Of a stretch of DNA of 64,000 nt, positions 4,608-15,664 are shown one piece after another. This DNA is from a virus: positions 14,784 to 78,783 of IMG/VR virus record IMGVR_UViG_3300035338_000016; one strand, given 5' to 3'. The notes beneath the pieces are model-generated. The model saw only the letters and a program-made list of their open reading frames with translations, searched no databases and had not been told where the DNA came from. Numbering within the stretch: the stretch's first letter is position 1; every line of letters starts with the position of its first letter. The position numbers were made by a program, and so were the translations under genes.

Positions 4608-5160
4608 TTATAATTTAAATCCTACATCAGACACCTCAAATACTTGTGGCATGTCGAACACTTTGCCATCATATGTAGCCGTTTCATTTTCTGCAATTTG
4701 AGCAGAATAGGTTGGCTCTGCGTAGAAACATTGCAACTTATCTAATACTTTAAGTGCTTGATTCTGTGTTGCATATTCTCCCATTGGTTGCTCACACAGA
4801 CCTTTCAGATAAAATATAATTCTATATTTGTCTTCTACTCTGGTCATGTTCATAACTTCTACTGAATCTAAATTAATTAATACTGTTTGGTCTTGGCTTC
4901 TAATTAACATGTTTGTCCTTTCATTTTTGTCTTCTCACATCATGATATCCACCACAATGGTCACATGTATTATTCCACATTGAATTTTCCAACTCGCATC
5001 CTTTACATCCTTTAACTTTAACCGTGATATATTTTTCTTCATCTTCTTTTTGTTTAACTTCAAAACAATAATCATCTAAAATTGAAATTTCTTTTTCTTT
5101 TTTTCTGATCAATGCTTTTAACTGCTGACTAGATAAATTAACATATTCTTTTTTCTTCAA
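4608..5160 (-). other. Two small hypothetical CDS (4608-4910, 4921-5160)
   Basis: ORF track; SD sites present. Confidence 0.65.
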
Positions 5161-5213
5161 GTTATCATCCTTTCATATTTCTTCTCTCCTTTGAAAGATA
5201 AGTTTCATCTTAA

Positions 5214-6152
5214 TTATTCTCTTTCTAGTACCTCTTTGATCCCTTTAAAGAACCACTTTATTACTTCTATAGTCCAACCGTCGCCACACATATTGTAAAT
5301 ATGACCTTTTGCAACATTCATTTTGTACCAATTAGGAACGGTTTGTAATTTCCGATATTCATTTTCAGTTAATTTTCTACATATATTCTTTTTAATGTCG
5401 TACACTTTCTTTTGATGGTTGCCTCCCCGGCAAGATGTTAATGTAGCACATTTAAATTTAGGATTATTTACTCGTTTTAATATGTCATGACCATTAATAT
5501 GTAATGTGGCACAAACCTTTTTATCTAGTCCATGAAAGTCAAAATCTTGATTATAGTAATATGTATCATCAACATTTGTGTCTAAGATATCTTCCAGCAC
5601 TAAACTATTTTCTGTTGGAATAGTTTTGTAATCATATTCGATGTTTGTCCAATATAATCTTGATCTGTCACAAGCAGAAAATAAATTACTATCAATATGT
5701 ACCCATTCATCGCCAAGTCTATTACTAACTATTTCTCTATCTTCGGCATTCATACCATCTACGTTTTCACATAGATACAATACATTTGGATTATTATTTA
5801 CTTTTATCCAATCCAAAATATCTGCACAAGGATAAAATAACCATGATGCATTACCTTTTAAACCTTCGTCATAACCTTTTCTTCCTTTTACAGCTTTAGA
5901 GTTATTCCTACATGGAAATCCAAACAATACTAAATCAATTTTAGGCAAACCTTTTAACCACTCATCATTCTCATATAAATCTAATAAACTGCCACATTGA
6001 ATTGTATCTGGGAAGTTATCTTGTGTTACTTGGATTGCTTTATCATATATTTCACTTGCGTAATATTTTTCAATTGGAATATCTAATTCAGTCAAAGCAA
6101 TCTGACCACAACTCATACCATCACATAAGCTTAATATATTTAATTTTCTCAT
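5214..6152 (-). CDS. C5-cytosine DNA methyltransferase, canonical motif order
   Basis: Motif I LSLCDGMSCG, IV GFPC, VI ENV, VIII DRSRLYW, X GDGW. Confidence 0.95.
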   Translation of the reverse strand: MRKLNILSLCDGMSCGQIALTELDIPIEKYYASEIYDKAIQVTQDNFPDTIQCGSLLDLYENDEWLKGLPKIDLVLFGFPCRNNSKAVKGRKGYDEGLKGNASWLFYPCADILDWIKVNNNPNVLYLCENVDGMNAEDREIVSNRLGDEWVHIDSNLFSACDRSRLYWTNIEYDYKTIPTENSLVLEDILDTNVDDTYYYNQDFDFHGLDKKVCATLHINGHDILKRVNNPKFKCATLTSCRGGNHQKKVYDIKKNICRKLTENEYRKLQTVPNWYKMNVAKGHIYNMCGDGWTIEVIKWFFKGIKEVLERE

Positions 6153-6159
6153 TCATTTT

Positions 6160-6204
6160 TAGGAGTCACTTAAGTTTTATGTCCGGACAACTCGTTTCCT
6201 CCTA
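6160..6204 (-). promoter_or_regulatory. Twin-palindrome leader element upstream of MTase 1
   Basis: TAGGAG/CTCCTA inverted repeat enclosing the palindromes TGTCCGGACA and ACTTAAGT. Confidence 0.6.
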
Positions 6205-6234
6205 TATATTCTTTTATCGTTAAATAACTATAAA

Positions 6235-7188
6235 TTAATACTTCCAGTCTTCATTTCTTAAATCGAAAGCGTCTCCCATTTGCTGAATGTCTGGATAATT
6301 TTTGTTTGCTATTGCCTTTGCCCATTTATCAATTTCATAAGCTCTATATGTAATATTCGTATAACCTAATTGATCTAAAACATATCTGCCAGTACCAATT
6401 CCGTCATACAATGATAAGACTTCAATAGGATAATCTTTGGGAATATTAATATGGGATAAGATATGAATAATTACATTTGCAACCCAACCATTACCAGAGC
6501 ATTCGTATCTCCATTTATTAGGGACTTCAATTTCAGCACCATTATCATCAATACCATATTGGGTATACCCTACAGGCATTGTAAATAATCTTTCTACTTC
6601 TTCTGGCGTTAGCTGTCTTAAATAACCGTTTTGGTTCTCATAAACTTTTCTTGGATCAGTTTTCCACAATTCTTTTTGATATTCAGGTGTACAATTTTCA
6701 AATACGGCTTGTCCCATTGACTTACCAAAATATCTACGTCTTAAATAATCTTGACTTCCTTGGAAACCAGCATATCTTCTAGCTATGCATAATGATTTTT
6801 CTCTATCCACACATCCACTCTCTAAACAATCTTGTAATTTGATTTCTAATTCTTTTGGTTGTTGTACTCCTGGAATATTAAACCAATATACTCTTTTTCT
6901 GCTTTGACCGCTTACTAAAGCAGCATCAATCATCATGTATGGAACTCCTAGATGCTTACTTACTTCATCCTTAACAGATTGAGAAATTGAGTGGTTGTTT
7001 TCTACCATAAAATAATCTGGTTTGAATTTTTCTTTTGCAATAACACCGTTTAAAAATAATTCCCATCCCTCACCGCTATTTGGTTCTACTTCTCTATTCT
7101 CTGTCTTTTGACATACACTAAATTTAGTACAAGGGAAACCAAAAATTAATAGTCTTAAAGGTCTTCCATTTAATTCTTCTACATTCAT
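6235..7188 (-). CDS. Circularly permuted C5-cytosine DNA methyltransferase (motif order IV-VI-VIII-TRD-IX-X-I-II-III)
   Basis: GFPC near the N-terminus, then ENN, QSRKRVYW, RQLTPEEVERL, GNGW; LSLYDGIGTG, EID and GDAFD at the C-terminus. Confidence 0.9.
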   Translation of the reverse strand: MNVEELNGRPLRLLIFGFPCTKFSVCQKTENREVEPNSGEGWELFLNGVIAKEKFKPDYFMVENNHSISQSVKDEVSKHLGVPYMMIDAALVSGQSRKRVYWFNIPGVQQPKELEIKLQDCLESGCVDREKSLCIARRYAGFQGSQDYLRRRYFGKSMGQAVFENCTPEYQKELWKTDPRKVYENQNGYLRQLTPEEVERLFTMPVGYTQYGIDDNGAEIEVPNKWRYECSGNGWVANVIIHILSHINIPKDYPIEVLSLYDGIGTGRYVLDQLGYTNITYRAYEIDKWAKAIANKNYPDIQQMGDAFDLRNEDWKY

Positions 7189-7195
7189 TTTTCAT

Positions 7196-7243
7196 TAGGA
7201 GTAAACGCTGCGTTTATCGGTCGACCAAACCTCATTTCCTCCT
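7196..7243 (-). promoter_or_regulatory. Twin-palindrome leader element upstream of MTase 2
   Basis: AGGAG/CTCCT inverted repeat enclosing GGTCGACC and TAAACGCWGCGTTTA; same architecture as 6160-6204. Confidence 0.6.
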
Positions 7244-7338
7244 TTTAATTTTTTCTATATTTTGTGTTTTATTTTTGCTCAATTACTATATGTAGTAATA
7301 ATATCCAAATGAAATTTATGTTTCAAGTGCCTTGTGAT

Positions 7339-7863
7339 TTAACGAATTCTCAAACTCTCTCCCTGTGGTTCTAAATGAGCAAATTCACAATTCAAAGATC
7401 CATCTTTTCCTTCTAAACCATTCTCTTTAATGAATTCTCTAATTGCATCACCATTTACTGCGTCTGGTTGTTTAACTCTGTATTCTTGTGGTAACTTTTC
7501 AACATCTACATCCACAATCAACTTTCTCTTACCGCCGTTCTTCTGAATATTGAACGAAAATAAATCAGTTTTAAATTTGGTCTTTCCAGTAGCCATCATG
7601 CACATATGTAAATTCTGTTTTAACCATTTGATTCTATTTTCTAATGTTGTTTTTCTATTGTTTAATCTTGTAATTTCCGTTTCCAGACCTTTTACATCTG
7701 ACTCGAAACATTTGATAATTTTTGCATACCCATCTGCTTTCTCTTCAATTTCATATTCAATACATTCCAATGAATTAAGTATCGTTTCTTCATCGTAGCT
7801 ATCATCTTCTAACATTTCCATTAATTGAATAAAATTACCTGTAAGTTCATAAATGTTTGCCAT
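7339..7863 (-). CDS. Siphovirus Gp157 family protein
   Basis: MANIYELT start, IEEKADGYAKII and KTKFKTDLFSFNIQKN segments typical of the family. Confidence 0.9.
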   Translation of the reverse strand: MANIYELTGNFIQLMEMLEDDSYDEETILNSLECIEYEIEEKADGYAKIIKCFESDVKGLETEITRLNNRKTTLENRIKWLKQNLHMCMMATGKTKFKTDLFSFNIQKNGGKRKLIVDVDVEKLPQEYRVKQPDAVNGDAIREFIKENGLEGKDGSLNCEFAHLEPQGESLRIR

Positions 7864-7871
7864 ATATCCTC

Positions 7872-10235
7872 CTATGCTATGTCCTTTAATCTATTTTTGT
7901 TTTCAAGAAGAAATCCTCTCAAAAATGTTTGTTTGGTCTTTACTTCTTTTGTTTGAATTGCTTTTGTGATTGCATAACTATTTCCTACTAACACACAATA
8001 TCTTTTAGCTCTAGTGATAGCTGTATATAATAATTCAGAATTGTTCATGATGTAGCTGCTACTATCAATCCCTACAATAGTAGATGCAAATCCACTACCT
8101 TGCATCTTGTGAACTGTACAAGCATAAGCCAACTCTAATTTTTTAGATTCTTTCTTATTAAATACCACTTCTCCAATGCCAATAAAATCAATTGTGCAAT
8201 AACCATCATCTGAAATATCTTTTACGATTCCAATATTTCCATTGAATACAGGTGTAATTTCACCTTCCGTATTTGTACACTTATAATTATTTTTTGTATT
8301 TAAAACCTTATCTCCAACTCGTATAATGTATTTCTTTGTATCTTCATTTTTCTTTTCTAAAAATATTTCTAATTCATTGCCTTCTGTGAATTTTGGATTA
8401 TACAAAGCTTGAATTTTAGTATTTAGGTTATAACAAGATAATTCTCCACGAAGTCGCATTGGAACGCATACTTGCACTTCAATTATGTCATTGTATTTTT
8501 CAATTTCCCTTTGAAAATGAGTCATTATTGATTCTACTAGAGTCTCTTTATCGGTTTTATTATCTGAAATATCTAATTCCATATCTTCTAATTCACCTAA
8601 AATTTCATGTCCAGTAAAATTATTAGAAAATATTAATTCTTGGTTTGCAATTTTAATTGATGTAGGAATAATTCCACTTCTCAATGCCTGTCTATGTGGT
8701 TTGGTCAATCGTACAACTGGTAATACTTCACTATCCAAAATATCAGCAAAAACTTGACAATTTCCAATAGGTGTTAGCTGTTGAACATCTCCCATAATAA
8801 TTACCTTTGCTCCTGTTGGTATAGCTTCTAATAATGAAAGGAACAATGTACCATTTATCATAGTTGCTTCGTCAATCAGTACAATATCGACAGCTAATTT
8901 ATTATATTTATTAAAGTCAAAACTACCGTTCATATATTGCAAAGCTCTATGAATTGTACAAGCTGGCAACCCCGTAGCTTCTGTAATTCTTACACTGGCT
9001 TTACCCGATAACGCACATGCTAAAATACTATAATCTTCATACAATGAACAAATGCCATTTGCGGTCGTGGTTTTGCCACAACCGGCATCGCCCGTGATAG
9101 CAATAACATAATTATCAAGACTTAATTTAATAGCACCCCTTTGCTCATCTGTGAAAGGAAAACTTTGATTGTCCTCAACCTTTGTAACAATATCTTCCCA
9201 ATTGCAAATATTAAAAGACTTAGGAATATAATCTTGATGTAAATCATTTTCTAATGAATCATCATCTTCTTCATTACTTTCAATTATTTTGATGTTTCCT
9301 ATTTGTAATCGCATTAACTCTTTCATAATATTTTCTTCAAGTTCATAAAATTTTCGTAAAGCAATTTTATTACCATTATCAACTACCACAACATCTTTAT
9401 GATCTACCATTAATTTAGCCGTTGTATTTACTACTTCTTCTGGAACAAATCCAAGAGTGTCATATAGTGATTGCATTAATTCTTGATATGTAAGATAACT
9501 TTTACCTGCTTCACCTTGTTCATTTAAATGATGCAACAAGAATCCTTTAATTCTACGAATATCATATTGACCAATTCCAACCTTACAGGCTACCTCATCA
9601 GCTTTTTTAAAACCAACACCATCCACTCTTACTAAATCATATGGATTGTTTCTTACTACATCTATCACCGTATCAGGAGAATTATAAAACTCAACTAATT
9701 TTTTAATAAAAGTATGAGTCAATCCAAGTTGACCTAGTTCCATATAAATTGAACTATAATCCTTTGCTTCTTCATATTCATCAATCATTTTCAAAGCTAC
9801 TTGATTTCCTATTCCTTTTATCTCCATTAAAGACTTTACATCTCTATCTTCTAAGAGTTTCAAAACATCTTCGTATTTATCAAATAGCTTTTCTACCAGA
9901 TTTTCATTTAATATATTCTTCAGAAACTCTTTTTGTTTATCCTTACTTGAAATATCAATACACTTACTCATATATAAGATTTCATAAGTGTCACCATAAA
10001 TTTCATGAGTATCTACTACACGACCGTACATTTTGTAAGTTGTACCATAATCAAGTTTACAAACATTTCCTTTGTATTTTATTGTTTCAAGTTCTTCACA
10101 ATTTTCTATTGGTTTTACAATTCTTGCACTAAATATTGCAAACTCCCCTGATTCAACACTCTTGGAATATTTAGGAAATACAATTCTTTCTAAAACTACC
10201 TCTGCTTTTACAATCTTTTCTTCTTCCAATATCAC
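7872..10235 (-). CDS. recD2: RecD2-like SF1B DNA helicase
   Basis: NPYDLVRVDGVGFKKAD HhH region, Walker A GDAGCGKTT, DEATM, LAYACTVHKMQGS. Confidence 0.9.
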   Translation of the reverse strand: MILEEEKIVKAEVVLERIVFPKYSKSVESGEFAIFSARIVKPIENCEELETIKYKGNVCKLDYGTTYKMYGRVVDTHEIYGDTYEILYMSKCIDISSKDKQKEFLKNILNENLVEKLFDKYEDVLKLLEDRDVKSLMEIKGIGNQVALKMIDEYEEAKDYSSIYMELGQLGLTHTFIKKLVEFYNSPDTVIDVVRNNPYDLVRVDGVGFKKADEVACKVGIGQYDIRRIKGFLLHHLNEQGEAGKSYLTYQELMQSLYDTLGFVPEEVVNTTAKLMVDHKDVVVVDNGNKIALRKFYELEENIMKELMRLQIGNIKIIESNEEDDDSLENDLHQDYIPKSFNICNWEDIVTKVEDNQSFPFTDEQRGAIKLSLDNYVIAITGDAGCGKTTTANGICSLYEDYSILACALSGKASVRITEATGLPACTIHRALQYMNGSFDFNKYNKLAVDIVLIDEATMINGTLFLSLLEAIPTGAKVIIMGDVQQLTPIGNCQVFADILDSEVLPVVRLTKPHRQALRSGIIPTSIKIANQELIFSNNFTGHEILGELEDMELDISDNKTDKETLVESIMTHFQREIEKYNDIIEVQVCVPMRLRGELSCYNLNTKIQALYNPKFTEGNELEIFLEKKNEDTKKYIIRVGDKVLNTKNNYKCTNTEGEITPVFNGNIGIVKDISDDGYCTIDFIGIGEVVFNKKESKKLELAYACTVHKMQGSGFASTIVGIDSSSYIMNNSELLYTAITRAKRYCVLVGNSYAITKAIQTKEVKTKQTFLRGFLLENKNRLKDIA

Positions 10236-12811
10236 ACCTCACTATCGTGAATTAAAGATTTACCCTTTGTATAGTTTCTACTTATAATTTCATATTGTGT
10301 AATAACGTCATATTCTTTATCAATATCGGCGGCTAAGATATTAATACCCTTATCATCTTTACCAATTATCTTTTGACCAAATATTTTCTCTGACTTAATA
10401 ACGTCAATTATATCTCCATCTTGTAGAGGTAAAATTTTATAAACCTCCTTCTTTACTTTTCTATATTGAATTTCACCTGATTTCATATTGTAAATAATAA
10501 TATTTGGTGCTATAACATCTCTGGTGTTTAACACAAACCAACGATTGTCATTCAACTCACCATCTATAAATCTAACTTCATTAAATTTTGATACTTGCAT
10601 AGCCATTATTTCATATGGATCAATGTGATTATTCTCAATAGTTTCAAATATTTCTAATAATGCTTTGTGGGAATCGAAGTTATTATAGGATTTTCCTGTT
10701 TTAGATAATTCAGAATTGTTTTTAATTATAGATTTGATGGAGTCATCAGATATTTTCTTGTCAAGATTAGTGACAGTGATTTTATCTTTTCCATATAATA
10801 AGTTAAAATAATCTCGAAACGTTAAAAGTTTTTGGGTTTTTCCATATGCTCCACAACAATCAGCAATGATATAACCTTCTAAAACTTTTTTAGTAATTTT
10901 ATTTTCTAAACATTTTTCCAAAAATTCATAGAAATTTTGACTTTCACACATGCACTTGAATAGAATCTCAGGAATTTCGTCTATTTTTTCAATGTCCTTC
11001 TCCGTGAATTGTCTAATTCTTTCTTTAGCTGCATCTATGTAATACTGCCTATCAAGATATTCTGGAACTTCAACATTATTAATGTCATCGTTGTTTATAA
11101 AACATTTATCTGGTGTGTAAGCTACTTTCTCAAAACTTTTTTGTCCTTTTTCAATCTTTACTTTGTAAATACCTTTGTCTTCTGATCTGTTTGAAGCGAA
11201 TACTCTATGTACTTTTTCTTTTAATGGCGTTCCATCTTCCACAAAAATTTTATCTTTGCCATCCACTTTTACTTTCTTACCTTCACCATATACTACCCCT
11301 TTGTACAAGGCTGTAAGCTTAATTACTTTTTGAAATTCAATCAATTTATCAGCTTGATTTATAGTATCTTCCACGGGGATGTCATGAACAAAATAATTAA
11401 CTAATGCTTTGTTTAGTATTGGAAGATCATAGTCAATTTCTGATAATTCTTTTACATATGCTCCCTTACATTTATAATGTCTATCTTCTAAGTCAATCAA
11501 AAGATAATTATTTACATCTTTTTGAACTAATCTGCCGTGTTTGTAAACATCAAACTCCAACTCTAATTTTGTTCTATTTTCCCATTCTTTAGATATAGCT
11601 TTAACTTTATCTACATCTTCCATAGTTTTGACTCTAACATAAATGCCATCTGTATTTATCTGTAAGATTTCACACATATCTTCTAATCGAGCAGCTAATT
11701 CAGTTAAATATAGTTGACCTGCAATACACACATTGTTACTCTGTACTGGATCATAGCATGGAGAGTTTCTATCTTTTAAAATTCCATAGGTACTATTAAT
11801 TACGATTTTTAATGGTTGTTGTCTTTTGTCTTTTATCTTTTTTAATTCTAATCGTCTGTCTCTCATGTTCTCAAAGTCTTTAGGATTTTTAAGTTTTCTA
11901 CTAGAAAAGCCTTCGTTAATCATTAAAGATGGATATAGACTAGCAACATCGGCTGCTACTAAAATTCCTTCAAAAATTTCATTATCTTTACTACCATGTA
12001 ATCCCCCATAACCATATACGCAAGGAACTCCCCCTACTTTAGTAATTAACTGACGTGTACTGTTACTATCAACTTCTGTTTTTAATGGTAATTTATAACT
12101 TTTATTCTCAGGTTTTAAGTACCAATCAACAATATATTGGTATTTTTCTGGCATTCTTAAATTAGAAGGTATGGTAATTTCAAACTCATCGTCAATTGTA
12201 TGTTGTTCAATTGCTCCTAATATAGTAGCTGCTAATTGGGCTTTTGTTTTATTGAACATTTCCATATCTAAGTTAAACATTGAAATCATATCTAATTGAG
12301 CTTCAAATTCTTTAATTGTAGAATCCAAAGTTTTCAATGTTTCTTTTACGTCATGTATGTTATATTCTTTAATTTGACGAATTTCGTCTCCTGTCAATTT
12401 ACGTTCAATATCAAATGGAACATCTGTTTCTTTGATCATATCTCCCATAAAGGCTTCAAGCTGTTTCAAAGACTTATCTTTAAGGATTACATCATAATTA
12501 TTTAAATGATATTTCTTAGCATTTTTTACAACTTGAAATCCTTTTTTCCCACTCATGATTAATTCATCATTTATGTAAGATGGATTCATACCATCTAAAA
12601 TTCCTTTGAATAAAAATTGATCATACTGTCTACTGTTATATCCTACAAAAATAGCATCTTTATGTTGATTGTAAAAATCTATTAATTCTTGTCTATTGTT
12701 GATGATGGTAATTGGATTTTCTCTATCTTCTCTATCAATAAATGTTACGCACCACCAATTTATTTTAGAAAACACTTCAAAATCATATCCATAAATCTTT
12801 CTATCAAAAAT
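10232..12811 (-). CDS. Family-B DNA polymerase with a C-terminal DnaE-like extension; probable ATT start at 12811
   Basis: Motifs DVASLYPS, KIVINSTYG and NTDG. ExoI YDFEV lies in frame upstream of the tracked GTG (12775). AGGAGG lies 8 nt before ATT. Confidence 0.85.
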   Translation of the reverse strand: MFDRKIYGYDFEVFSKINWWCVTFIDREDRENPITIINNRQELIDFYNQHKDAIFVGYNSRQYDQFLFKGILDGMNPSYINDELIMSGKKGFQVVKNAKKYHLNNYDVILKDKSLKQLEAFMGDMIKETDVPFDIERKLTGDEIRQIKEYNIHDVKETLKTLDSTIKEFEAQLDMISMFNLDMEMFNKTKAQLAATILGAIEQHTIDDEFEITIPSNLRMPEKYQYIVDWYLKPENKSYKLPLKTEVDSNSTRQLITKVGGVPCVYGYGGLHGSKDNEIFEGILVAADVASLYPSLMINEGFSSRKLKNPKDFENMRDRRLELKKIKDKRQQPLKIVINSTYGILKDRNSPCYDPVQSNNVCIAGQLYLTELAARLEDMCEILQINTDGIYVRVKTMEDVDKVKAISKEWENRTKLELEFDVYKHGRLVQKDVNNYLLIDLEDRHYKCKGAYVKELSEIDYDLPILNKALVNYFVHDIPVEDTINQADKLIEFQKVIKLTALYKGVVYGEGKKVKVDGKDKIFVEDGTPLKEKVHRVFASNRSEDKGIYKVKIEKGQKSFEKVAYTPDKCFINNDDINNVEVPEYLDRQYYIDAAKERIRQFTEKDIEKIDEIPEILFKCMCESQNFYEFLEKCLENKITKKVLEGYIIADCCGAYGKTQKLLTFRDYFNLLYGKDKITVTNLDKKISDDSIKSIIKNNSELSKTGKSYNNFDSHKALLEIFETIENNHIDPYEIMAMQVSKFNEVRFIDGELNDNRWFVLNTRDVIAPNIIIYNMKSGEIQYRKVKKEVYKILPLQDGDIIDVIKSEKIFGQKIIGKDDKGINILAADIDKEYDVITQYEIISRNYTKGKSLIHDSEV

Positions 12812-14584: not shown

Positions 14585-15664
14585 TCATCCATTTGTACCA
14601 ACGTATATTTTTTGTTCCATTAATTTAAGCAAAATATCTTTCCCCATATCGGTAGGAGATGCTTTGTATGGTAATAAATTTCCTGAATCCCATAGCACAG
14701 AAACTCTTACGAATGGACTTAATTTATCAATTATTTTTTCTTTTATGTGAGTTGCCCATTTTTTACATTCATCTGAATCTAAAGATTGATATTGTTTATC
14801 AAGAGCAACTATAACTTCCCTTACACCTAACATTAATATCATTCCTTTTTGAAAATCGGTTAAATTACTTCCACATAAAGCAACTGTAAAATTATCATCT
14901 CCAAACATAGTATCTGTTTGAAATACTGATTTTTCAGCTTCCACTAACATAATTTTCTTTTTTTCTTGAATTGCCGTTAAGTTATGATTTAAGCCAAATA
15001 AATTTTGTCCTAACGAATGATTGTAAAATTGTTTTCCTACTTTAAACGGTGTATATTTGCCAAAAAGTTCAATTTCTTCCTCTATCAAGGATCTTCCTCT
15101 TACTCCAATCAATTGATTATTTATGTCAAAGTGAGGAATTATTATTTTTTGTTGCCATGTGGAATATAAAATTTTGTACTTTTTCATTGTTTCAATTGAA
15201 ATACCTTCGTTAATCCAATCTTCCACATATAACTTTTGAAAAATTCTTAATATAGATTCATTGTATAAAATTAATGGTTTTGTTGTTTTTTCTTTTTTTG
15301 TGTTTCGTTTATACTTTCTAATAAAATCCCAATCTGATATTTGTTCCTGTTTACCAAATCCATATTCACAATTATCAATATTTAATTTTATACAAATCCA
15401 ATTAATAGCTTTTGGGAGTTCTGTAGGTTCATACCCTTTATATCCCATTACTACACCGATAACATCTAATTGTCCACATTCCGAATAGCAATGGAAAGAT
15501 TGAGAGTCTTTATAGTAATATAACTTGGGTTTTAATCCATGATGACATACTGTATCAGTTATCCATTGATCATCATCTTCATAATAGAAGGTTGCCCCCA
15601 TCTCTAATAACAATTTTCTTACGTCATCTTCAGAAAGCTTTTCTTTCAATTCTTGGGCGGTCAT
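14585..15664 (-). CDS. DNA primase (Zn-binding plus TOPRIM; YorJ-like)
   Basis: TVCHH...KLYYY...FHCYSECG zinc domain, IIIPHFD, LVEAEKS, IVALDK. Confidence 0.9.
   Translation of the reverse strand: MTAQELKEKLSEDDVRKLLLEMGATFYYEDDDQWITDTVCHHGLKPKLYYYKDSQSFHCYSECGQLDVIGVVMGYKGYEPTELPKAINWICIKLNIDNCEYGFGKQEQISDWDFIRKYKRNTKKEKTTKPLILYNESILRIFQKLYVEDWINEGISIETMKKYKILYSTWQQKIIIPHFDINNQLIGVRGRSLIEEEIELFGKYTPFKVGKQFYNHSLGQNLFGLNHNLTAIQEKKKIMLVEAEKSVFQTDTMFGDDNFTVALCGSNLTDFQKGMILMLGVREVIVALDKQYQSLDSDECKKWATHIKEKIIDKLSPFVRVSVLWDSGNLLPYKASPTDMGKDILLKLMEQKIYVGTNG

Follow-up and report, generated by a model that had tools for sequence, protein, structure and literature searches.

The gene at positions 6235-7188 (minus strand) of the window, a stretch of 64,000 nucleotides within a provirus record of 127.5 kb (IMGVR_UViG_3300035338_000016, positions 14,784 to 78,783), encodes a C5 cytosine methyltransferase whose chain is circularly permuted, starting at motif IV and ending just after motif III. 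C5 methyltransferases serve as the textbook example of motifs whose order is fixed. We hold with good confidence that the protein is best explained as an intact DNMT3-like permutant from a clade carried by phages of Clostridia, with an ancient origin, most likely by duplication, and a probable role in anti-restriction methylation. Here we present the features of the gene and its relatives, together with the rival explanations and a comparison with known permutants.

Gene and motif features

The gene is a single unbroken open reading frame of 317 codons, encoding 317 amino acids, and TGA and TAA stop codons in frame just 5' of the ATG rule out an N-terminal extension. Its motifs follow in the order IV-VI-VIII-TRD-IX-X-I-II-III (TRD, target-recognition region), with coordinates that were checked by translating sub-ranges. 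The features of the gene and of its methyltransferase neighbor are as follows.

6235-7188, minus strand: permuted C5 cytosine methyltransferase gene, 317 aa (open reading frame, Pfam, BLASTP, alignment, AlphaFold2, translation)
7129-7143, minus strand: motif IV, FGFPC, with the catalytic Cys20, on the first strand (beta4); Pro19 and Cys20 invariant in 50 relatives
6994-7002, minus strand: motif VI, ENN (Glu63); invariant in 50 relatives
6892-6906, minus strand: motif VIII, QSRKR (Gln95, Arg97, Arg99); these three residues invariant in 50 relatives
6625-6876, minus strand: target-recognition region (TRD), residues 105-188; length varies across the family
6574-6624, minus strand: motif IX region (alignment, DNMT3/DRM comparison, translation)
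6457-6495, minus strand: motif X, GNGW and helix; Gly232, Asn233, Gly234 and Trp235 invariant in 50 relatives
6427-6456, minus strand: ten-residue linker between the motif X helix (the former C-terminus) and the motif I strand (the former N-terminus) (alignment, model, contig)
6388-6426, minus strand: motif I, SAM-binding loop LSLYDGIGTG, DNMT3-like; Tyr261, Asp262, Gly263, Ile264 and Thr266 invariant; aligned to DNMT3A
6328-6339, minus strand: motif II, YEID; Glu285 invariant in 50 relatives
6268-6276, minus strand: motif III, GDA (Asp306); Gly305, Asp306 and Trp315 invariant in 50 relatives
5214-6152, minus strand: canonical-order DNMT3-like C5 methyltransferase, 312 aa, distant paralogue (Pfam, BLASTP, structure-sequence match, tree, identity)

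When the protein was compared with this neighbor using BLASTP, residues 2-240 matched residues 62-298 of the neighbor (E 1e-13) and residues 255-315 matched residues 4-65 (E 1e-7). The order of the two blocks is swapped, and both ends of the permuted protein converge on the same few residues of the neighbor. The C-terminus (...DWKY) lies ten residues past the GDA of motif III. The rearrangement amounts to a clean circular permutation whose breakpoint falls in the short loop leading from motif III to strand beta4. The motif order given in the preliminary description, with the SAM-binding motifs at the C-terminus, is confirmed by the translation and by the swapped BLASTP blocks.

Pfam model PF00145 matched the protein with 53.2 bits (cut-off 22) in two stretches, and none of the NCBIfam models reached its cut-off (TIGR00675 scored 50 bits against a cut-off of 100.65). 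The residue set of the C5 superfamily is complete, comprising the Pro-Cys of motif IV, the Glu of motif VI, the QxRxR of motif VIII, the GNG of motif X, the SAM loop of motif I and the acidic residues of motifs II and III; the linear order from I to X is absent, as motifs IV-X come before motifs I-III. The product is an intact, probably active, monomer-sized DNMT3-like phage C5 methyltransferase. The motif FGFPC, earlier described as unusual, is so only in its leading Phe, GFPC being the ordinary motif IV consensus.

Predicted fold

The AlphaFold prediction proposed in the preliminary description was made with AlphaFold2 from the family alignment and gave a confident fold (pLDDT 92.1, pTM 0.89). 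The strands of the model follow in the order beta4 (residues 11-17), beta5 (59-65), beta6 (84-88), beta7 (98-103), beta1 (255-260), beta2 (279-284) and beta3 (301-303). The solved structures nearest by sequence were DNMT3A/3B (E ~1e-26), aligned in three blocks of swapped order, and motif I is strikingly similar to that of DNMT3A; plant DRM came next (E ~1e-14) and was aligned as a single collinear block using the family profile. With VIA-align, NtDRM superposed on model residues 56-317 (Z 18.5, rmsd 2.5 Å, 225 residues), collinearly through the X-to-I junction, and DNMT3B on model residues 1-252, i.e., motifs IV-X (Z 17.4); the structural match to M.HhaI had a Z of 13.6. The matches to DNMT3, DRM and M.HhaI obtained with Foldseek and VIA-align identify a class I methyltransferase fold with a small TRD domain. 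Among the eukaryotic families the catalytic domain is most similar to DNMT3/DRM (E 1e-26 and 1e-14, respectively; Z 17-18.5). The N-terminal part of the eukaryotic enzymes is absent, as the 317 residues are all catalytic domain and the gene is a prophage gene.

As DRM has the same covalent X-to-I junction and the model superposes on it, the C-terminal motifs I-III are placed as in DRM, and the superposition together with the pTM suggests that they pack against beta4. The chain begins at beta4 with the catalytic Pro-Cys; motifs VI and VIII come next, followed by the target-recognition region, motifs IX-X and the ten-residue linker, which leads to beta1-beta3 (motifs I-III). These three strands would fold back beside beta4 and complete the seven-stranded sheet. 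If the conserved residues act in the usual C5 chemistry, Cys20 would attack C6 of a flipped-out cytosine, Glu63 and Arg97/Arg99 would hold the base, and the methyl group would come from SAM bound by motifs I-III and X.

Intactness of the gene

A contig of 101 kb from the probable source run (depth 16) is identical to the window across positions 5100-7400. In an independent study of a biofilm metagenome, contigs with 99-100% identity tile positions 6016-7118, and one of these contigs, at 6226-6486, takes in the motif X helix, the linker, motifs I-III and the stop codon. Run X2 covers the gene in overlapping pieces, no one contig holding it whole, and runs X3 and X4 cover small parts only. In an alignment of 50 relatives (53-85% identity) the invariant residues are Pro19, Cys20, Glu63-Asn64-Asn65, Gln95, Arg97, Arg99, Gly232-Asn233-Gly234-Trp235, Tyr261-Asp262-Gly263-Ile264, Thr266, Glu285, Gly305-Asp306 and Trp315.

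The preliminary description had named an assembly artefact as the finding that would overturn it, and such an artefact is ruled against by the depth-16 contig and by the independent near-identical contigs, which cross the X-to-I junction. Mis-assembly and its counterpart, a functionless remnant of two truncated tandem genes, would account for a Pfam match that consists of two partial stretches, and for the frequent naming of relatives as 'hypothetical' by annotation pipelines; against either stand, besides the contigs, the same motif order in 71 of 79 loci from other genomes, the invariance of the functional residues among the 50 relatives and the high confidence of the AlphaFold2 fold. We regard both as extremely improbable.

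Family, hosts and phylogeny

A word-indexed search yielded more than 100 collinear relatives of 280-460 aa. All 13 relatives that were examined start near '...LNGRPLRLLIGG[FS]PC' and end with '...YDGI[AG]TG...YEID...GDA...W.Y'. When 1.84 billion cluster representatives were searched exhaustively, 4843 matches had E <=1e-3 and 286 had E <=1e-30; the best 150 clusters at 50% identity comprised 71 permuted proteins, 34 canonical ones and two fused tandems, the rest being fragments. In a scan of one genome per prokaryotic species, 169 genomes contained a relative. Of these, 79 loci were fetched: in 71 motif IV lies upstream of motif I (681-1371 nt apart), two are canonical and six are partial. The named hosts are nearly all Clostridia from gut, rumen and digesters (Lachnospiraceae, Oscillospiraceae and Acutalibacteraceae), with isolates that include Butyricicoccus pullicaecorum DSM 23266, Lachnospira eligens and Robinsoniella peoriensis.

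Standard profiles are weak for the permuted family, and precomputed PF00145 matches are marked 'weak'. The best PHROG match was phrog_17284 ('unknown function', E 3e-31), in which residues 185-279 align with positions 153-244 of the 245-position profile; this profile appears to span motifs IX-X-I of permuted methyltransferases. Phage nd4 (OR777945, WRQ08028.1; locus L002:2498-4174) carries a permuted member of 558 aa, labeled 'hypothetical protein' in GenBank, with about 100 additional C-terminal residues after motif III. A megablast search of positions 5000-12000 against GenBank phages gave no match. Given the weak profile detection and these two labels, phage methylation in anaerobic and gut communities is probably under-annotated.

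The trees were inferred from 63 permuted proteins, re-linearised, and 45 canonical proteins, all picked by similarity to the permuted query; the IQ-TREE analyses used 215 core columns from which the TRD, termini and junction had been removed. The permuted proteins formed one side of a single branch in FastTree (support 98), in the quick IQ-TREE analysis (SH-aLRT 95) and in the careful IQ-TREE analysis (ultrafast bootstrap 99, SH-aLRT 96), and a single change suffices in 99% of the bootstrap trees. The canonical group nearest to the permuted clade on the tree is P0204/P0222/P0258. The tree is unrooted, and the derivation of the permuted from the canonical order relies on all wider relatives being canonical; as every one of them is, a single old permutation event is the simplest reading, and the clade would fit one ancient origin.

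The closest enzymes outside the permuted clade, with 45-52% core identity, are canonical DNMT3-like phage methyltransferases of order I-X, namely Cellulophaga phage phi18:1 gp01, Synechococcus phage S-CBS2 Dcm, Roseobacter phage CRP-9 gp12, P0204 and P0222, some of which carry the same TRD cassette. Matches of marine phages in two pieces were considered as candidate permutants and rejected, as the enzymes are of canonical order.

The TRD of the window protein (residues 105-188) is 80% identical to that of the canonical protein P0125 and 69% identical to that of the canonical P0151. In their catalytic cores these two canonical proteins share just 32-36% identity with the window protein (P0125 32%), and permuted relatives with 55-70% identical cores carry unrelated, longer TRDs. 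From this pattern of TRD identity with divergent cores, and vice versa, recognition cassettes have evidently been exchanged between permuted and canonical-order relatives, moving from one scaffold to the other.

In the permuted relatives P0139 and P0198 and the canonical P0163 and P0225, an insert of 200-400 aa begins at the cysteine of the catalytic Pro-Cys. These inserts match Hint/intein-splicing domains, that of P0198 also a LAGLIDADG domain, so that permuted and canonical enzymes alike have inteins in their active-site motif. P0244 and P0263 have a similar insert, as judged by motif spacing only.

Relationship to the adjacent methyltransferase

The preliminary description had read the adjacent canonical gene, with its shared FGFPC, as evidence of the duplication behind the permutant. 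A recent local permutation of this kind, in which the permuted gene arose in this phage from a duplicate of its neighbor, draws on the adjacency of the two genes on the same strand, on the DNMT3-like character of both proteins and on the FGFPC present in each. Yet the neighbor is only 25% identical to the permuted protein over motifs IV-X and 35% over motifs I-III (BLASTP), and among the 45 canonical relatives it ranks 45th in core identity to it (32.2% versus up to 51.6% over the 215 columns); it likewise comes last in mean identity to the permuted clade (36.1% versus 54.0%). The window protein is nested deep within the permuted clade, and P0007, which is 81% identical to it, has no methyltransferase adjoining at its loci. 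A synteny search with ten neighboring proteins of the window found no conserved gene neighborhood around family members, the surroundings being quite different in other relatives of the permuted gene. FGFPC is derived: it is confined to the nearest relatives of the window protein (P0001-P0009) and, separately, to the neighbor, whereas GGSPC is the family norm, and the codons for FGFPC differ between the two genes.

The phylogeny of re-linearised domains that had been suggested as a check separates the two genes only in part. In the best tree the permuted proteins occupy their single branch and the neighbor lies inside a distant canonical clade (100/98), on a long branch; however, an approximately unbiased (AU) test on the careful tree does not reject its placement beside the permuted clade (delta lnL 0.9, p 0.505), a point in favor of local origin. 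A first AU test had used the quick tree, for which the constrained search gave a tree better by 58 lnL units. With the long branch and this AU result the phylogenetic exclusion is not formal, and the neighbor is disfavored as the parent by the identity ranking and synteny rather than by phylogeny alone. The parentage of the neighbor is thus not supported by the sequences, which point to a distant paralogue, and we consider a local, recent permutation very unlikely. With a permutation that is old and clade-wide, the lowest core identity, an unpaired P0007 and a derived FGFPC, the adjacent gene does not serve as evidence of the duplication; permutation by duplication itself stays plausible for an ancient event.

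Origin of the permutation

P0145 (962 aa) and P0196 (618 aa) are natural in-frame, single-chain fusions of two complete C5 methyltransferases. The permuted protein aligns collinearly with residues 75-386 of P0145 (E 2e-41), a stretch made up of motifs IV-X of the first domain, a linker and motifs I-III of the second domain. The fused tandems contain the permuted order internally, as would fit duplication, fusion and truncation. The clustering of the two halves of P0196 on the tree points to a recent tandem duplication and fusion in that protein. Canonical methyltransferase genes arranged head to tail are common in phages, with examples in Psychrobacillus phage Perkons (three in a row), in Croceibacter phage P2559Y and in this window. 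In Perkons (MT325768; L001:2288-5241) the first two genes are DNMT3-like and lie in the same frame, 63 nt apart, with several stop codons between them; a tblastn match that had suggested a fused gene there was rejected, as it crosses these stops and represents tandem genes.

By the route that we consider most likely, an ancient tandem duplication of a canonical gene would have been followed by in-frame fusion and by loss of both outer ends. With M.HaeIII the duplication route has been replayed in the laboratory, yielding active variants that start between motifs III and IV (PMC5944983). A canonical gene could instead have been split between motifs III and IV, with its pieces reordered and re-fused, and these data leave the intermediate steps undated, which gives such a fission some room. 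No split pairs of I-III and IV-X genes were found among the relatives examined, in which shorter fragments were not specifically sought, while both head-to-tail tandem genes and fused tandems with the permuted order are known. Fission is therefore unlikely in our view, if still worth bearing in mind, and tandem duplication with fusion and truncation is preferred.

Genomic context and probable role

On one side the permuted gene is flanked by a replication or early module and on the other by the second methyltransferase gene and small unknown genes. The features of this context are as follows.

7339-7863, minus strand: Mu Gam-like end-protection protein
7872-10235, minus strand: RecD/Dda-like helicase (787 aa)
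10232-12775, minus strand: DNA polymerase (847 aa)
7189-7243, minus strand: leader of the permuted gene, with palindromes GGTCGACC and AAACGC-A-GCGTTT in the spacer; fold z -1.9, modest
6153-6205, minus strand: leader of the canonical gene, of the same layout, with palindromes GTCCGGAC and ACTTAAGT; fold z -1.7

Neither methyltransferase gene has a normally spaced ribosome-binding site; in both leaders a GGAGG about 50 nt upstream is able to pair with a CUCC by the start codon. The leaders fold modestly better than shuffled sequences, by the z values listed above, and an Rfam search of positions 5000-8000 (E up to 1) detected no known RNA family in them. Given the lack of a normally spaced ribosome-binding site, expression of the permuted gene may be conditional; none of the sequencing runs listed as containing the stretch is recorded as RNA. 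The palindromes might serve as operators for autoregulation or be sites that the enzymes themselves target.

GGCC is absent from the window (positions 1-64000, G+C 30.9%), with about 32 occurrences expected from base composition. GATC (73 found, 170 expected), TCGA (76 and 170) and GCGC (13 and 32) are depleted as well, and AGCT and CCGG are not. The absence of GGCC and the depletion of the other three words suggest restriction-site avoidance alongside methylation.

Orphan phage methyltransferases commonly protect phage DNA from host restriction, and by analogy the permuted enzyme is most likely an orphan methyltransferase that would methylate the phage DNA against it. The enzyme might instead be active as the modification half of a phage-borne restriction system, as an epigenetic regulator or as a partner-dependent subunit. 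Regulation is hinted at by the palindromes in both leaders, and dependence on a partner by the solved structures of DNMT3 and DRM enzymes, which act as dimers or tetramers. However, no nuclease gene is recognizable among the neighbors of the permuted gene, and the gene neighbors vary between relatives, as is typical of orphan phage methyltransferases. These other roles together appear quite unlikely, and the orphan, protective role is retained as the preferred reading.

Comparison with known permutants

A 2018 survey of REBASE, using motif X before motif I as its criterion, turned up 27 natural sequences. Every one of them is broken in the variable region, and the authors concluded that nature permutes C5 enzymes only there and favors pathways by which both domains stay whole (PMC5944983). 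In a 2020 review, 'one alternative permutation' is mentioned for the 5mC motif order, and IV-TRD-I is the order that defines class beta (PMC7544214); a 2025 classification of topologies places m5C enzymes only in classes C (canonical) and F (M2.Eco31I type) (bioRxiv 10.1101/2023.12.13.571470). A natural C5 enzyme broken between motifs III and IV is not described in the published surveys and classifications examined (REBASE itself was not queried), and further literature searches brought up no account of such a break. The preliminary description would have lost its point had the topology already been cataloged, and none of these three sources contains it; its distinction of the III/IV break from both the M.BssHII type and plant DRM also holds, the motif coordinates differing from both definitions.

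On balance we lean somewhat towards a natural C5 topology class new to the literature, of beta-like order, with one ancient origin in phages of Clostridia, fused intermediates that are extant and recognition cassettes that are traded. If true, this would contradict the published generalization by which both domains always stay intact in natural permutants, and the family would be a natural replay of the laboratory experiments on permutation by duplication. A large, conserved natural family broken between motifs III and IV shows the variable-region-only rule to be a sampling effect, and it is a natural counterpart to the topologies evolved in the laboratory, with surviving fused-tandem intermediates. 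As compact scaffolds of DNMT3-like type, with new termini and recognition cassettes that can be interchanged, its members could serve as split or fusion methyltransferase tools.

M.BssHII, M.Alw26I, M2.Eco31I, M.Esp3I and M2.BsaI (type H, zeta, class F) are natural prokaryotic permutants with motif X before motif I, like the permuted protein. Their break in the variable region leaves both structural domains intact (PMC5944983), whereas the permuted protein is cut within the large domain, in the stretch from motif III to motif IV, with the TRD and motifs IX-X in mid-chain.

The animal DNMT3A/3B/3C catalytic domains, which include the best sequence match among solved structures, have a DGIATG-type motif I and a short TRD, and their GGSPC is the motif of most members of the permuted family. 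They differ from the permuted protein in the canonical I-X order, the large N-terminal chromatin-reading domains and the eukaryotic host.

Plant DRM (NtDRM, 4onj; Arabidopsis DRM2, 7l4c) is likewise a DNMT3-like C5 enzyme with a covalent link between the motif X helix and motif I. Of the two permutations this junction alone is common to both: the DRM chain runs from motif VI to IV-V and that of the phage protein from IV to III, and DRM is eukaryotic with UBA domains, whereas the phage protein is prophage-encoded and consists of the catalytic domain alone. As the similarity to DRM (1e-14) is weaker than that to DNMT3A (1e-26), the two permutations are probably independent; shared descent of the X-to-I junction from such a fused form is much less likely, and we give it only a very slight chance.

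Among laboratory permutants, the evolved M.HaeIII variants of group 1 and the engineered M.MpeI/M.SssI types B and C have their new N-terminus between motifs II and IV (PMC5944983). They keep activity, with tandem-duplicated fusions as active intermediates, and are artificial, in contrast to the large natural family described here. The 2018 authors suggested that SAM is bound less well by such topologies. The class beta amino-methyltransferases (M.PvuII, M.RsrI, CcrM) carry a (D/S/N)PP(Y/F) motif and make N6mA or N4mC. The permuted protein shares their order IV-TRD-I (PMC7544214) but has a Pro-Cys motif (FGFPC) in place of that catalytic motif, together with the complete set of C5 motifs; among C5 enzymes, its topology corresponds to the beta order.
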